A stretch of DNA of 44,443 nucleotides from Escherichia phage mckay. The DNA lies in sequence record NC_073073.1. The stretch is one strand, 5' to 3'. Positions 1 to 44,443 of the stretch are shown piece after piece. The notes under the pieces were generated by a model that had not been told where the DNA came from, searched no databases, and worked only from the letters and a program-made list of their open reading frames with translations. A program made the translations under genes and the position numbers. The first letter of the stretch is position 1. Each line of letters opens with the position of its first letter.

Positions 1-288
1 GAAGATGACGACGATGAAGAAGCCGAAGACGAAAAACCCGCTAAGTCTAAAAAAGCGAAAGGCAAAGGCAAGAAAGATGCCGATCCGCTGGCAGAGATGC
101 GCGACGAAATCAAACAGTATGCCGCGATTATTGCCGGTGGTGATGACGACGACGCGAACGACGAATTCGACGACCTGCTGGAATCGTTCGAGATCAAATC
201 AATCGCCAAGCTGGAAGATGACGACGTCGAAGACTTCCACACAGAGTTGAAAGAAATCGTCGAAACCTATTTCGAACTGGAAGATTAA
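1..288 (+). CDS. Acidic early protein, C-terminal part (5' part at 44293-44443; gene crosses the window end)
   Basis: Frame 1 is open from base 1 to TAA at 286-288 and is in frame with the ORF starting at 44293 once the 13-bp end overlap is counted once. Product is rich in D/E runs with K-rich patches. Confidence 0.6.
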   Translation, partial: EDDDDEEAEDEKPAKSKKAKGKGKKDADPLAEMRDEIKQYAAIIAGGDDDDANDEFDDLLESFEIKSIAKLEDDDVEDFHTELKEIVETYFELED

Positions 289-6987: not shown

Positions 6988-7212
6988 ATGACGATGAAAG
7001 AACACTACCGACTCACCAAGCTGGGTGAATGTAAACCGGGCGATCGCGTGTGGTTTATCGCGGGCATGAATTACCCGCTGCCGTTGACGGTGTGCTGGCA
7101 AAAATTTAAGAGCTTCCGGGCTACCGGTGTGCACGTTGGGCACGCCACCAACTACGACGCCACAAAGAGGAACTGGGATAGTGAAACTGAAGTCTGGAAA
7201 AAGGCGGAATAA
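6988..7212 (+). CDS. Hypothetical protein (74 aa)
   Basis: ORF between terminator and helicase gene; alternative start at 6994. Confidence 0.5.
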   Translation: MTMKEHYRLTKLGECKPGDRVWFIAGMNYPLPLTVCWQKFKSFRATGVHVGHATNYDATKRNWDSETEVWKKAE

Positions 7213-7216
7213 AGAG

Positions 7217-8641
7217 ATGGCACGATTCCGACGCCGCGAATATCAGAAGTTGATTACCGCGTTCATCCTCAAGCATAAGCGATGTAATATCTGGGCGACA
7301 ATGGGGTCGGGTAAAACCGGCGCGACAATGTGGGCGCTGAATAAAATGTTCCAGACGGGCATCCTGTCCCACCAGGAGGACCGCGTACTGGTTCTGGCCC
7401 CGCTGCGCGTTGCATCCGGCACCTGGCCCCCGGAGCAGGAGAAATGGCGGTTCTCATCCCTGCTGGTCGTAGACGGCACTGGACCAGAGAAGGACCGCAT
7501 AGCCGCGCTGGAGAGTAACGCTAACGTGGTTTGTGTTAACTACGATGTGGTTGAGTGGCTGGTCGACTATTACGGCGATGCGTGGCCCTTTACGGTCGTT
7601 GTTGCCGATGAATCGACTAAGCTGAAAGGCTATCGTAGCAAGCAGGGGAGCAAGCGCGCCCGCGCACTGGCCGCGATTGCACATAAACACGTCAAGCGAT
7701 GGATTAACCTTACCGGCACACCAGCGCCAAACGGGCTAAAAGACTTATGGGGTCAGACGTGGTTTGTCGACGGTGGCGAACGCCTCGGCAGTAGCTATAA
7801 GGCATTTACCGACCGCTGGTTTATTAGCAAGCCTGTTAAGCCTGGCAGCTTCACTATGCAGATCGCCCCGCTCAAGAACTCCGAGAAAGAAATACAACAA
7901 CGCCTGTCAGACGTATCCCTTACTGTTGACGCGGCTGAATACTTCGGGTGCGACAAGCCAATATATACGCCGGTTGTTGTGGACCTACCGAAGAAAGCCC
8001 GTAAGATTTACGACCAGTTTGAAAGCGAGCTATTTGCCGAACTGGAAAGCGGAACAGTGGAAGCGGCGAACGCCGCGGCGAAGACAATTAAGTGCCTTCA
8101 GCTTGCTTCCGGCGCGGTGTATAAGGTGGACGAAGACGGCGAACGGACCGACGAGTGGGTGAAGATTCACGACGCGAAGCTGGACGCGCTGGAAAGTATC
8201 GTGGAGGAGTTGAACGGAGCGCCGTTGCTCGTTGCGTACCAATACAAACATGACCTGGCACGTCTCAAGAAGAAATTTCCGCACGGCGTTGCGCTGGGTA
8301 AAGGTAAGCAGGGCAATAAGGATATGGAAGCGTGGAACAGAGGCGAGATCCCCATCATGTTTGCGCACCCGGCATCGGCGGGCCACGGCCTTAACTTGCA
8401 GGACGGCGGTCATCACCTGGCAATCTTCTCCGATACCTGGAACTTTGAGCACTTTTCGCAGATCGTTGAACGTATCGGGCCGGTTCGCCAGATGCAAGCA
8501 GGACACCCCCGTCCGGTATTCGTCTACATTATCCAGGCGCGCGGAACACTGGACGAACTGGTCGCCGAGCGTCGCGACAGTAAGCGGGATATTCAGGACG
8601 ACTTGATGGAATACATGAAAGCTAAAAAGGCGCGCAAATGA
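7217..8641 (+). CDS. SNF2-family (superfamily 2) DNA helicase
   Basis: Start at ATG 7217 (MARFRRREYQ); Walker A ATMGSGKTGA, DExx-type VVADESTKLK, C-terminal helicase region. Confidence 0.8.
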   Translation: MARFRRREYQKLITAFILKHKRCNIWATMGSGKTGATMWALNKMFQTGILSHQEDRVLVLAPLRVASGTWPPEQEKWRFSSLLVVDGTGPEKDRIAALESNANVVCVNYDVVEWLVDYYGDAWPFTVVVADESTKLKGYRSKQGSKRARALAAIAHKHVKRWINLTGTPAPNGLKDLWGQTWFVDGGERLGSSYKAFTDRWFISKPVKPGSFTMQIAPLKNSEKEIQQRLSDVSLTVDAAEYFGCDKPIYTPVVVDLPKKARKIYDQFESELFAELESGTVEAANAAAKTIKCLQLASGAVYKVDEDGERTDEWVKIHDAKLDALESIVEELNGAPLLVAYQYKHDLARLKKKFPHGVALGKGKQGNKDMEAWNRGEIPIMFAHPASAGHGLNLQDGGHHLAIFSDTWNFEHFSQIVERIGPVRQMQAGHPRPVFVYIIQARGTLDELVAERRDSKRDIQDDLMEYMKAKKARK

Positions 8642-9273
8642 TAATCTGGTCATTGTTTGACGGCAGCGGCTTGATGATTGAGCGTGCTGCCGAGATGGGG
8701 CATAAGTGCTACTGTTTTAACTACTCCGAAGCCGATCACGGGTCGTACCTTGACTACCGGATTTATGGTCGCGGAATCCGGTATCGCAATGAGTTTATCG
8801 ATCTGGACTTTGTAGACCGTGCGATGAATGGCGATTTCGGTACGCCGGATATCATCTATGCGTTCCCTCCGTGTACGGATCTGGCAGTTAGCGGCGCGCC
8901 AGCTTTCCCGCGCAAGCGTGCAAAAGACCCCGCCTTTCAGCTTAAGGCGGTGCGCACCGCGAAGATCGCCGCTTACCTGGGTGACTTCTTCGAAGTGCCA
9001 TATATGATTGAGAATCCGCGCAGTGTGCTTTCCACCCAGTGGCGTAAGCCGGACCACTCATTCGACCCGTGGGAGTATGGGGGATATCTGCCGGAGGATG
9101 ACGTACACCCGCTCTTCCCGGAATACATCAACGCCCGCGATTCATATCCGAAGCTGACCTGCTTATGGACCGGCAACGGCTTCCGTATGCCAGAGAAGAA
9201 ACCTGTTTTCGTTGAAAAGGGTACTCTAAGCAGTATAGTCGCCTCGGAGGCAAATCAGCCCGCACAAAATTAA
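8638..9273 (+). CDS. Compact cytosine-C5 methyltransferase-like protein (211 aa)
   Basis: SLFDGSG (motif I-like), FPPCTDLAVSG (PC motif IV-like) and MIENPRS (ENV motif VI-like), but too short to hold a normal target-recognition domain; start overlaps the helicase stop. Confidence 0.45.
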   Translation: MIIWSLFDGSGLMIERAAEMGHKCYCFNYSEADHGSYLDYRIYGRGIRYRNEFIDLDFVDRAMNGDFGTPDIIYAFPPCTDLAVSGAPAFPRKRAKDPAFQLKAVRTAKIAAYLGDFFEVPYMIENPRSVLSTQWRKPDHSFDPWEYGGYLPEDDVHPLFPEYINARDSYPKLTCLWTGNGFRMPEKKPVFVEKGTLSSIVASEANQPAQN

Positions 9274-9328
9274 TCCGGTCGCTCACCCCGCGCGGCTTCG
9301 CGATAGCGGTTAACGAGGAAAATTTAAA

Positions 9329-9652
9329 ATGAACGCTACATACGAAACCATTGATTTTTCGGTCGCAATGACTAACCAGCTATTCACCTACGACAGCAAA
9401 ACCGGCGTCATCCGTCTGAAGTCCACGGGCTGCAAAATCGGCAACATCAACACTGCAGATGGCGGAACACGTATCGAATGCAACGGCAAGACGCTGTCTG
9501 GCGCACGCGTGGCGTGGATTATTGAGACGGGCAATACAATCCCTCCAGGCTTCGCCGTTGTGTGCCGCCAGCGCACTCCAGGGCACTACGGCAACCGCAT
9601 AAGCAACCTTTACCTGGTAGACGTTGCACGCGACCCGAACTTTTATGCGTAA
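9329..9652 (+). CDS. HNH_3-like (homing-endonuclease-like) protein, possibly degenerate
   Basis: ARVAWIIETGNTIPPGFAVVCRQRTPGHYGNRISNLYLVDVARDPN resembles the HNH_3 pattern, but the usual metal-binding His before DNR is not obvious. Confidence 0.4.
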   Translation: MNATYETIDFSVAMTNQLFTYDSKTGVIRLKSTGCKIGNINTADGGTRIECNGKTLSGARVAWIIETGNTIPPGFAVVCRQRTPGHYGNRISNLYLVDVARDPNFYA

Positions 9653-9976: not shown

Positions 9977-10441
9977 ATGAAAATTTTACAAGAAGAGAAA
10001 AATTACTGGGCCGCGCAATGCCTCGAAGCCCGCGAGCAAGCCGAACGGGCGAACGCGCTGGCGGATACCTACCTGGCGAGCTATGAAGGCGAGGAGAAGG
10101 CGCGCAAGGAATTAGAGGAGCGCTTCGATCTGCTTTTCGAATTGATGGGGATTATGCAGCGCACCGGATATACAACCAGCGTTGCACTAAACCGCGTCAC
10201 GGCTGATGCGTTGCGGGAGCACTGTAAACGTGCGGAGGAGTACGTGCGCCCGAAGGGCCGCCAGTCTTCGATCGCCAGGAAAGACCTTGTGCTTATGGCG
10301 TGGCGCAACCCTACAAACGGCAGATTCTACCCGGACGCGCGCCCGCTTAGCGCCGAGGAATCAAAGCGCGTGCAACGCGTCATCAAAAAAGGCGATAAGA
10401 TCCCACTTTATGCGATAGACACCGACCATGACGAAGAATGA
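9977..10441 (+). CDS. Hypothetical protein (154 aa)
   Basis: ORF adjacent to the upstream stop; predicted coiled-coil N-terminus; no recognisable motif. Confidence 0.55.
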   Translation: MKILQEEKNYWAAQCLEAREQAERANALADTYLASYEGEEKARKELEERFDLLFELMGIMQRTGYTTSVALNRVTADALREHCKRAEEYVRPKGRQSSIARKDLVLMAWRNPTNGRFYPDARPLSAEESKRVQRVIKKGDKIPLYAIDTDHDEE

Positions 10442-10913
10442 GCAGAAGGATGGCTGGCGCACGCCGCCAGCTTTATTTAAACCGCTTCGTCGGAAGTACC
10501 GATTCCGTTACGATATGGCGGCAAGCGATGCAAACCACCTGCTACCGCGTTACTTCACGGAGGAGCACAGCGCGCTTGATGTGGACTGGTCCGAGTTGAA
10601 AGGGTGGAAGTGGTGCAATCCGCCGTATTCCGATCCGCTGCCGTGGGTAGAGTGCGCAGCGCACGGACGCAGGACGGTCATGCTGCTGAATCAGGACACG
10701 TCGACGAAGTGGGCGAAGCTGGCCCGGAAGACTGCAAACCTGATAATTCTTCTGGACTGGCGGATTAGATTCATTCACGCCGTCACCGGCGAAGTCGGGC
10801 CGAGCAATAACAAGTGCCAGCAATTGATAATCTTCGACGAAGCGCCACCCATCGGCAGCGCACAAATTGAAATAATGAGCGAAGGAGAACTCCTTGAATA
10901 TCTTAATCGTTGA
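10428..10913 (+). CDS. Phage Dam-type DNA N6-adenine methyltransferase
   Basis: WRTPPALF...RFRYDMAASDANHLLPRYFT...WCNPPYSD matches the phage Dam family with its NPPY motif. Confidence 0.8.
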   Translation: MTKNEQKDGWRTPPALFKPLRRKYRFRYDMAASDANHLLPRYFTEEHSALDVDWSELKGWKWCNPPYSDPLPWVECAAHGRRTVMLLNQDTSTKWAKLARKTANLIILLDWRIRFIHAVTGEVGPSNNKCQQLIIFDEAPPIGSAQIEIMSEGELLEYLNR

Positions 10914-12814: not shown

Positions 12815-14091
12815 TTATTTACCTTCCAGCTTCTCCACTTTATGCAACAGGTGGACGAAGGCGGCACACAGATCCATTAACAGAACGTTACTATCCAAAG
12901 ACAGCACATCGTCGGTATACCCGATCTCCTTGCGGTCGACTACAACCTCATTCCCTTCCTCGTCAACCCCCTTGACGTCCTCATAAATGGCGTAACCCGG
13001 CAGCAAATGCACGTATTCCGGGTCAATCCTTGCCAGGTCCTGCGCGATAAGGCCGTATCGCTGTACGTCCGACTCCTTATACTTGAACATTGCCGGAAGC
13101 CATTGTCGAACTCGGTTGTAGCTTTCCTCGCCGTCAGTGTATTGGATTTCTTTTTTAAGGTCGCGGTCCGATAGCGGCGCTTTCTGGAACTCGTTAACCG
13201 AAGGGTTGCCGCTGTTACCACTAATCAGCCTTTGGTCTGGCATAAAGCGGAATAGCGCCTCGGAAACACCGTCCTTCCACGTATGAATCCGGTAGTCCGA
13301 CATTTGAGTGTTACGAGAGCGAACAATGCCTGCGCGCACCCAGTCGGCGTACCATTTGTGCATGGTGAAGCCTACCCAACTGTCAGCCCCATACGATACG
13401 TTAGACAGAACTAAGCCGTTTCTTTCGACGTCATTGAATACTAATGACTCCCCACCATTCAGACGTAATGTTGCGTGTTTAACGTTACTATCATCACCAA
13501 CGCCAAGATTAGCGCGTGCCGACGATTTATCTGCGACGTCTGCCAGGTTCTGCGACTTCTTCATGAATTGCGTAGGGTCGATCGCGTTTTTGAAGTCTTC
13601 GGCCTCATTGCGAAATCCTTGCGCTGCTGCTTCAGATGCCGCGGCTTGTTGTTGCAGGTTGCGCATTTCAACGGGGTCAACTTCCTTCAGCAATTGCGAC
13701 AGATAGCCCCACGACATGCCCTGCATAACTTGCCCGTTCGGCAGCGTTACCGTGACTTCTTCTTCGTCTCCGAAGATGGCACGCCAGTTGTTTTCGTCTG
13801 CGATCATCAAGCGCAACGCTTTCTGTGCCTGTACTGTTACGCCCATCGTTGCCAGCGACATGGTATCGCGCTTAACGCCATCCCACGCGAGGTCTGTTGC
13901 CGTGGGTCCGTCGAACGGCAGCACCAGCGTAAGCGCGGTGTCGCTTTCAACTGACGCGATAGCAACAGTGTATGGGACTTGCCCTACTACCAGCGTTAAG
14001 AAGTCGCCAGCGGTAAACGCGGTAAACGTCGTGCCTACCCCGACAACCTCCTTGCTGTTATTCGTTACGGATAGTGTACCCGCTGCCATAG
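12815..14091 (-). CDS. Tail fibre protein with C-terminal intramolecular chaperone (peptidase S74-like) domain
   Basis: Start taken at ATG 14091 (MAAGTLSV, GAGGA RBS) rather than ORF-track 14116. C-terminal LSDRDLKKEIQY...YGLIAQDLARIDPEYV matches the auto-cleaving chaperone domain of tail fibres/endosialidases. Confidence 0.7.
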
Positions 14092-24314: not shown

Positions 24315-24487
24315 TATTCAGTCTCAGACGAGGGGGGCCATTGACCCCCGTCTAGTCTGAAAGACTGGGGTGCTGTCCCGCTGTCCCGATCGGCTGAAAA
24401 CCGCGGCAGCACTGGCGGGGACGGGGTGCTGTCCCGTTTTGTCCCGCCCCTTGTTTGTCCCGCTTTCTGTCCCGCTTACTTTATGCA
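24315..24487. repeat. Copy A of a ~175-bp noncoding element (imperfect hairpin plus TGTCCCGC iterons)
   Basis: ttattcagtctcagacgaggggggccaTtgacccccgtctagtctgaaagactggg and ggtgctgtcccgTtttgtcccgccccttgtttgtcccgctttCtgtcccgcttaCtttatgca recur nearly identically at 40963-41136. Confidence 0.7.
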
Positions 24488-24637
24488 ATAAAACTGCATA
24501 GGTATGCACATTTACAGGGCGTGACAAAACGGGACGTCCCGCCTGTCCCGCTTTGAGTTTATGCAATGAAAGTGATTAGATATGCGGTTTTACAGAGGCG
24601 GGACAAAACGGGACGTCCCGCCTGTCCCGCTTCATTA
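24480..24637. repeat. Two tandem ~79-bp direct repeats, each ending in the 12-bp palindrome CGGGACGTCCCG plus CCTGTCCCGCTT
   Basis: Palindrome at 24530-24541 and 24609-24620; each unit begins with tttatgcaat(a/g)aaa and contains ttacag(g/a)g. Confidence 0.65.
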
Positions 24638-40962: not shown

Positions 40963-41136
40963 TTATTCAGTCTCAGACGAGGGGGGCCACTGACCCCCGT
41001 CTAGTCTGAAAGACTGGGCTTTGTCCCGCCTGTCCCGCCCCTCTGGAAGCCGCGCCATCCGGGCGGGACATGGGGTGCTGTCCCGCTTTGTCCCGCCCCT
41101 TGTTTGTCCCGCTTTTTGTCCCGCTTAGTTTATGCA
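40963..41136. repeat. Copy B of the ~175-bp hairpin-plus-TGTCCCGC-iteron element, next to the primase gene
   Basis: Near-identical to 24315-24487; holds about six TGTCCCGC iterons at roughly 10-13 bp spacing plus an inverted GCGGGACA. Confidence 0.7.
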
Positions 41137-41169
41137 GTTTTAGTGCATAACTATTCATTATATTCACAC

Positions 41170-44096: not shown

Positions 44097-44292
44097 TCAC
44101 CCCGTCGACAGGATGCAGGACGCAAACTGGAGAGGGGCAACGCAGGGGCCGGATCGAAGTGTCAGGATTCCCAACCGTGATTATATAACCCGGTCCACTA
44201 CCCGAACGGGAGAACGCGCAACCGGGCAATATGTTAAGGCCACCGACGAAGTTAACTGCCGACACCTAAACTTAACCAATCGGAGATATACC

Positions 44293-44443
44293 ATGTTTGA
44301 GCAAATCGTAAACCTGATCACTCGCGGCGTAGTAGCACTGGAAACCATCGCTAAGCATTATGAAACCGTTGGCGCTGCCGTTGGTAAACAGGAAGATAAG
44401 AAGCCGTCTAAGGCGAAAAAAGAAGTCGTAGAAGATGACGACG
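44293..44443 (+). CDS. Acidic early protein, N-terminal part (continues at 1-288 across the window end)
   Basis: ATG 44293 with GGAGA RBS; open to the window end and in frame with 1-288 through the 13-bp overlap. Confidence 0.6.
   Translation, partial: MFEQIVNLITRGVVALETIAKHYETVGAAVGKQEDKKPSKAKKEVVEDDD

Follow-up and report, generated by a model that had tools for sequence, protein, structure and literature searches.

Escherichia phage mckay (NC_073073.1; the window analysed here is the whole record of 44,443 nucleotides) carries an open reading frame (ORF) at 8638..9273 whose 211-residue product is deposited as QHR73458.1/YP_010741566.1 under the name 'C-5 cytosine-specific DNA methylase' (exact-sequence match). 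We conclude that this ORF is probably a frameshift-truncated and naturally inactivated allele of a compact C5-cytosine methyltransferase of 231 residues found in Dhillonvirus phages. The evidence consists of a one-base deletion in a short run of A, of the strong conservation of the C-terminal block that lies beyond it, and of the comparison with relatives in which the gene is intact.

The reading frame of the mckay methyltransferase gene

The following features of the gene are needed for the argument.

8638..9273, + strand: apparently truncated 'Dcm-like' C5-cytosine methyltransferase ORF, 211 residues, ATG start (ORF list, family comparison)
8656..8670, + strand: motif I, F-D-G-S-G, S-adenosylmethionine (SAM)-binding loop, residues 7-11 (F, G, S and G invariant in the family alignment)
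8866..8877, + strand: motif IV, P-P-C-T, residues 77-80 (Cys79 is the counterpart of the catalytic C82 in K42/KarlJaspers Dcm)
9010..9018, + strand: motif VI, E-N-P, residues 125-127 (Glu125 is the counterpart of E128 in K42/KarlJaspers Dcm)
9215..9218, + strand: A4 run, site of the one-nucleotide deletion (A5 in relatives; nucleotide alignment)
9219..9332, + strand: orphaned 3' end, 37 codons plus TGA, frame +3, encoding GYSKQYSRLGGKSARTKLIRSLTPRGFAIAVNEENLK (alignment, translation)

A sequence-only reading of this DNA had described the ORF, its 211 codons and its three methyltransferase-like motifs, and all of these were recovered where it had placed them. In an alignment of 44 homologues sharing 57-83% identity with its first sequence, the F, G, S and G of motif I and the complete P-P-C and E-N-P triplets are invariant and, given this family-wide invariance, FDGSG, PPCT and ENP are not chance matches. 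The same reading had taken 211 residues as the length of the protein, a point that did not survive comparison with related phages. In PaulFeyerabend (gp36), slur05 (gp02), SO-1 (gp32) and SM_S24, the intact gene spans 696 nucleotides and encodes 231 residues, and its stop codon and the start ATG of the HNH gene downstream overlap (ATGA). Nucleotide alignment showed that PaulFeyerabend, slur05 and SO-1 read GTTGAAAAAGGGTAC, with five A residues, where mckay reads GTTGAAAAGGGTAC, with four (9215-9218), so that GTTGAAAAAGGG in the relatives has become GTTGAAAAGGG in mckay through the loss of one A of the A5 run. As a consequence of this loss, the ORF runs into a premature stop: residues 1-194 are native, whereas residues 195-211 (GTLSSIVASEANQPAQN), which follow Lys194, are out of frame and unrelated to the family, and the stop codon is found at 9271-9273. 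The length of 211 residues is thus, judged from the sequences, a result of the frameshift and not a property of the native gene.

The native C-terminus, GYSKQYSRLGGKSARTKLIRSLTPRGFAIAVNEENLK, is preserved in frame +3 from position 9219 onwards and ends in a TGA (9330-9332) that shares bases with the start codon of the HNH gene. Since neither ATG, GTG nor TTG occurs within 9219..9332, this orphaned segment could not be translated on its own. It holds one of the most conserved stretches of the methyltransferase family, LGGKS..TK.IRSLTPRGFA, in which 13 positions (L, G, G, K, T, K, R, S, L, P, R, G and A) are invariant among the 44 aligned sequences. This block belongs to the C-terminal motif IX/X helix (224-234, P0001 numbering), for which the family pattern LGGKS..TK.IRSLTPRGFA.A is likewise invariant and which is out of frame in the mckay ORF. 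The motif-X helix at the C-terminus of C5 methyltransferases helps to complete the cofactor site. The loss of one A would therefore replace the last 37 residues, invariant block included, by 17 unrelated ones and, because both this block and the three helices at the C-terminus of the structural model are lost through the frameshift, the 211-residue product is most likely inactive. The deposited protein, as a frameshift product, should carry a 'disrupted' flag.

Real mutation, consensus error or residual expression

If the missing A had arisen in sequencing or assembly, mckay would really possess an intact 231-residue gene and would methylate cytosine as its relatives presumably do. The loss of one base from a homopolymer is a classic type of error, the A4 allele is common to no other record or contig, and the downstream frame is fully preserved up to the usual ATGA overlap, with no further damage; a recent mutation would, however, spare the downstream frame in the same way. 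The rarity of the allele was examined in 60 records sampled across the 153 Dhillonvirus matches: none of the 56 that matched over the full length carries the deletion, each of their spans being exactly one base longer than the query. An exact-pattern scan of IMG/VR revealed no occurrence of the A4 allele, and no exact match to the 211-residue product was obtained in the assemblies searched.

The quality of the mckay record was assessed by comparing the 64 annotated PaulFeyerabend proteins with the mckay genome (tblastn). The methyltransferase alone was split across two frames. All other matching proteins were found in a single frame per locus, most of them over their full length, and the only partial matches were the lateral tail fibre and a gene spanning the genome ends. 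Because no other gene among about 60 has a broken frame, the assembly does not seem to be generally prone to insertions or deletions. Moreover, the homopolymer counts merely four to five bases. The sister phages bob, jat and rolling, whose taxids and accession series neighbour those of mckay, were isolated on E. coli MG1655; the record of bob gives Danish wastewater as its source, and the Danish wastewater phage study, the likely source project of mckay, was sequenced on Illumina NextSeq, a platform that seldom miscounts a homopolymer of five bases. Genuine loss alleles of the methyltransferase gene are also carried by other Dhillonviruses (see below). On balance, a real mutation appears roughly three times as probable as a consensus error, and we regard an error in the record as unlikely though far from negligible.

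Granting that the deletion is real, the allele could be leaky if a -1 ribosomal slip at A_AAG_GGT (9216-9222) yielded a low level of the wild-type 231-residue protein. The heptamer formally matches X_XXY_YYZ, A_AAG is a slip-prone lysine codon context in E. coli, and translation in the -1 frame (...E-K, then GGG-TAC...) would give the native C-terminus without any substitution. By contrast, the RNA downstream of the site shows no stimulatory structure (minimum free energy -15.4 kcal/mol, z +0.48 relative to shuffled sequences), no Shine-Dalgarno-like element was seen by eye upstream, and the site arose by the deletion and is not conserved. Programmed -1 frameshifting was rejected, as the shuffled controls are at least as structured as the RNA that follows the site; any slippage would be at basal level at most, and a leaky allele is in our view improbable.

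Family, fold and probable activity of the intact enzyme

The 1.1-kb region 8400-9500 matched 156 phage records, nearly all of them Escherichia Dhillonvirus (HK578/SO-1-like siphoviruses); 147 of these cover at least 80% of the region, and the identities of all 156 range from the 80-90% band up to 96.4%. It should be noted that one record, PQ843332.1 (Escherichia phage P-GXEC-L2P5, 88,607 bp), is about twice the size of a Dhillonvirus genome, and its match to the methyltransferase region is broken into 3-4 pieces spread over a longer stretch; either an insertion in the methyltransferase gene or chimeric or concatenated assembly may account for this. Beyond the genus, 2886 homologous clusters were detected (90% identity, E<=1e-3), mostly of 225-250 residues among the matches listed, and an exhaustive profile search gave 1966 representatives at 50% identity, the best 150 of which are for the most part 200-260 residues long and match the profile end to end. 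Relatives were found in 1510 phage records, including Drexlerviridae, rV5-like and PVP-SE1-like myoviruses, many Klebsiella siphoviruses and phage 9NA. Some family members are longer and have extra N- or C-terminal regions, in which no Pfam domains were found. The compactness of the protein is hence a trait of the family and not an effect of the truncation.

The assignment to the methyltransferases made by the sequence-only reading is borne out by the match of residues 1-193 to PHROG 757 ('DNA methyltransferase', E 1.4e-67), and its fold assignment was correct. In a structural comparison, the DNA methyltransferases DNMT3B and DNMT3A were the best matches, and the modelled fold is that of a C5-methyltransferase catalytic domain. 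In this model, a loop and two short helices come after the last core strand (179-184, P0001 numbering) and lead to the C-terminal helix 224-234. About 40 basic residues (185-223, P0001 numbering) thus stand in place of a separate target-recognition domain, which in canonical C5 methyltransferases comprises roughly 80-130 residues. In the family alignment and the model, a conserved YPK(K)TCLWTG strand seems to occupy the place of motif VIII, and QxRxR is not recognisable. The earlier statement that the protein has no room for a target-recognition domain was therefore essentially right for the whole family, with some 40 residues available. As to its short length, the part that holds is the compactness, since even 231 residues are far fewer than in canonical C5 methyltransferases; the figure of 211 is a product of the frameshift.

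Experimental support for the family comes from phage K42, a KarlJaspers relative. Its 711-bp dcm gene triggers retron Ec86 (Retron-Eco1), and its expression raised 5-methylcytosine (5mC) in the multicopy single-stranded DNA (msDNA) of the retron as measured by LC-MS (liquid chromatography coupled to mass spectrometry), whereas a C82A/E128A/K175A/K176A mutant gave no such rise (Wang et al., bioRxiv preprint 10.1101/2023.08.16.553469; later papers cite the published form, Cell Rep 2024;43:114857). In the same work, Dcm was encoded by 34 of 35 Ec86-sensitive phages, and four phages that escaped the retron had lesions in dcm, in one case a frameshift through the loss of 1 bp (10.1101/2023.08.16.553469). 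The 'Dcm-like' gene of KarlJaspers (MZ501090) is likewise 711 bp long and has C82, E128, K175 and K176 at exactly the positions reported for K42. By analogy, our best reading of the intact Dhillonvirus protein is that of an active DNA C5-cytosine methyltransferase dependent on SAM. As in characterised C5 methyltransferases, it would bind SAM through motif I (FDGSG), Cys79 of the PPC motif would attack C6 of the cytosine and Glu125 of ENP would protonate N3, while the basic segment of about 40 residues and the C-terminal helix would take the place of a separate target-recognition domain.

Regarding the target sequence, CCWGG occurs 151 times in the mckay genome, 2.2-fold above the 68 occurrences predicted by dinucleotide shuffles. 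This excess vanishes with a tetranucleotide-based expectation, of which the observed count is 0.97, and CCWGG and GATC counts were for this reason discarded as clues to specificity, the CCWGG counts being uninformative. Relative to the same tetranucleotide-based expectation, CTWGG/CCWAG, the deamination products of methylated CCWGG, stand at 0.48, GGCC at 0.69 and GATC at 0.78, a pattern of ratios shared by PaulFeyerabend; avoidance of CTAG may explain part of this pattern.

The family could also represent a repurposed C5 fold, acting on a substrate other than DNA cytosine (RNA, as in Dnmt2) or transferring a group other than methyl (carboxymethyl, as in 8yf3). This is very improbable, as the K42 enzyme, 54% identical, raised 5mC in msDNA in a manner dependent on its catalytic residues (LC-MS; 10.1101/2023.08.16.553469), and the closest structures, DNMT3B and DNMT3A, are DNA methyltransferases. 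Least likely of all is the literal reading of the 211-residue product as a working extra-small methyltransferase: motifs I, IV and VI survive in it together with the entire beta-sheet core (residues 1-194), but the 13 invariant residues and the model's three helices at the C-terminus all fall within the segment replaced, and its deletion is absent from the 56 full-length records sampled.

Several observations weigh against the reading of the mckay ORF as a truncated and inactive C5-methyltransferase allele. Ties to canonical C5 methyltransferases are weak at the level of sequence. No Pfam family, PF00145 included, matched the 211-residue protein at E<=1, no NCBIfam match was obtained for the methyltransferase, and no relevant PDB chain was found by sequence or by profile (a kinase match at E 0.45-1.9 was rejected as spurious). 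PF00145 is matched weakly by 26 of the 44 relatives; P0021, P0026 and P0058 exceed its gathering score (24.7-28.5 bits against a cut-off of 22), their coverage being limited to profile positions 4-94 (motifs I-IV). Alignment of the family profile with E. coli K-12 Dcm (hhalign) was confined to 25 columns around motif IV (E 0.26), where the PPC of the family falls on the Pro-Cys of E. coli Dcm, and because it covers this motif only, the identification as a 'Dcm orthologue' was dropped. The assignment of CCWGG to K42 Dcm was made by analogy with the host Dcm and from msDNA stem mutants (10.1101/2023.08.16.553469), and no direct determination of the target specificity of the family was found in the literature. 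The inactivity of the product is deduced from conservation only, and the membership of mckay in the Danish Illumina study from taxids and accession series that lie next to its own; one consensus error in the A stretch keeps some probability. Finally, the methyltransferase gene is intact in sister phages isolated on the host of mckay, so that no specific selection for its loss is shown.

Gene neighbourhood, apparent recurrent loss and known methyltransferases

Three neighbouring genes complete the picture of the locus.

7217..8641, + strand: SNF2-related DNA helicase, 474 residues as aligned, translationally coupled upstream (ORF list, domain match, relatives)
9329..9652, + strand: HNH/homing-endonuclease-like gene, 107 residues (ORF list, relatives)
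10428..10913, + strand: Dam-type N6-adenine methyltransferase, 161 residues, intact (PF05869, E 2.9e-36)

The stop codon of the helicase gene overlaps the start ATG of the methyltransferase gene (ATGA). The helicase ORF as listed starts with a GTG at 7127 (7127..8641, 504 residues), and the 474-residue helicase of the relatives aligns from 7217; because of this alignment, 7217 is probably the true start. The HNH gene, coupled to the methyltransferase stop in the relatives, begins 55 nucleotides past the premature stop in mckay. The Dhillonvirus order of helicase, methyltransferase, HNH gene, a further ORF and Dam is retained in mckay. The further ORF (9977..10441, 154 residues) is labelled 'DNA ligase' in SO-1 and slur05, and the SM_S24 record reads 'putative DNA ligase but no evidence'; its product has no NCBIfam match, and the name ligase looks unsupported.

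The Dam-type gene, also noted by the sequence-only reading, was confirmed by its PF05869 match. That reading had further suggested either that the phage modifies its DNA in more than one way or that the C5 protein is a reduced or repurposed fold. With the C5 methyltransferase inactivated, however, the Dam-type enzyme would be the only intact methylase, and mckay probably relies on it alone.

Elsewhere in the genome, the homologue of PaulFeyerabend gp48 is divided over the two ends of the sequence, 44113..44442 (residues 1-110) and 76..285 (residues 160-229), and the record therefore represents the whole genome opened inside this gene; about 49 intervening residues are unmatched, yet only 76 nucleotides lie between the two parts. 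Two paralogous small ORFs on the - strand, 24327..24509 and 40976..41158, each match both gp18 and gp52 of PaulFeyerabend (70-80% identity) and appear to be a small gene duplicated at two distant places of the genome. The homologue of the lateral tail fibre (12818..14089, - strand) is conserved only in its N-terminal 195 residues (85% identity); the remainder has either been exchanged or has diverged strongly, as is usual for a host-range cassette.

Disruption of the methyltransferase gene is not confined to mckay. It was found in about 6 of 153 records (criterion: less than 80% coverage). Phage vB_EcoS_PS2 (L008, 601..930) carries a 109-residue in-frame deletion that takes out PPC and ENP, only the last 162 nucleotides of the gene are left in Teewinot and Shigella phage 1b, and further in-frame deletions, N-terminal truncations or fragments occur in P0004, P0011, P0113 and P0015 and in assemblies. 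These deletions, truncations and remnants in several other Dhillonviruses suggest that the gene is dispensable and has been lost repeatedly in the genus. Since phage Dcm triggers retron Ec86/Eco1, it is plausible that the losses are driven by escape from methylation-sensing defences. Only tentatively do we propose the wider picture of a minimal C5 methyltransferase that would work through its basic segment of about 40 residues or through DNMT3-like oligomerisation, maybe on a target other than CCWGG, and whose gene would be lost recurrently under pressure from retron Eco1 or type IV restriction.

As to significance, GenBank and the records of the genus already carry an annotation of the gene, and the methyltransferase family is already characterised, with a member of published activity and a role as a trigger of retron Ec86/Eco1, so that the discovery value is small. 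Phage mckay would nevertheless be a natural dcm-null Dhillonvirus with intact, isogenic-like relatives in bob, jat and rolling, wastewater isolates on the same host. Comparing it with these relatives would be a convenient test of whether retron Eco1 is set off by the Dhillonvirus Dcm, or whether this enzyme makes the phage susceptible to Mcr-type restriction. The family also raises the question of how a C5 methyltransferase of about 230 residues picks its target without a recognition domain.

Among known enzymes, the intact Dhillonvirus orthologues are the closest: PaulFeyerabend gp36 ('Dcm-like C5 cytosine methyltransferase'), SO-1 gp32, slur05 gp02 and the SM_S24 protein are 99-100% identical in amino acid sequence to the repaired mckay protein and lie in identical synteny, the difference being the A5 run instead of the A4 of mckay. 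The Dcm of K42/KarlJaspers (Bas06, Drexlerviridae) is 54% identical to the repaired protein over its full length (E 1e-86) and of similar size (236 residues in KarlJaspers against 231 in Dhillonvirus). Its catalytic Cys, the Glu of ENP and the invariant C-terminal block all align with the repaired protein, whereas its K176 (KarlJaspers numbering) corresponds to Leu173 in mckay; it belongs to another phage family and another gene neighbourhood, and it is the mckay copy that is frameshifted. More distantly, the catalytic domains of DNMT3A and DNMT3B share 12-17% identity with the phage enzyme at a TM-score of about 0.5. These two enzymes also have a small recognition region; their domains are larger (about 280 residues), form tetramers with DNMT3L and recognise CpG. 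By contrast, M.HhaI and M.HaeIII (PF00145) and E. coli Dcm, with 327-472 residues, possess a large target-recognition domain that the mckay protein lacks, and E. coli dcm adjoins vsr whereas the mckay methyltransferase gene adjoins an HNH gene.

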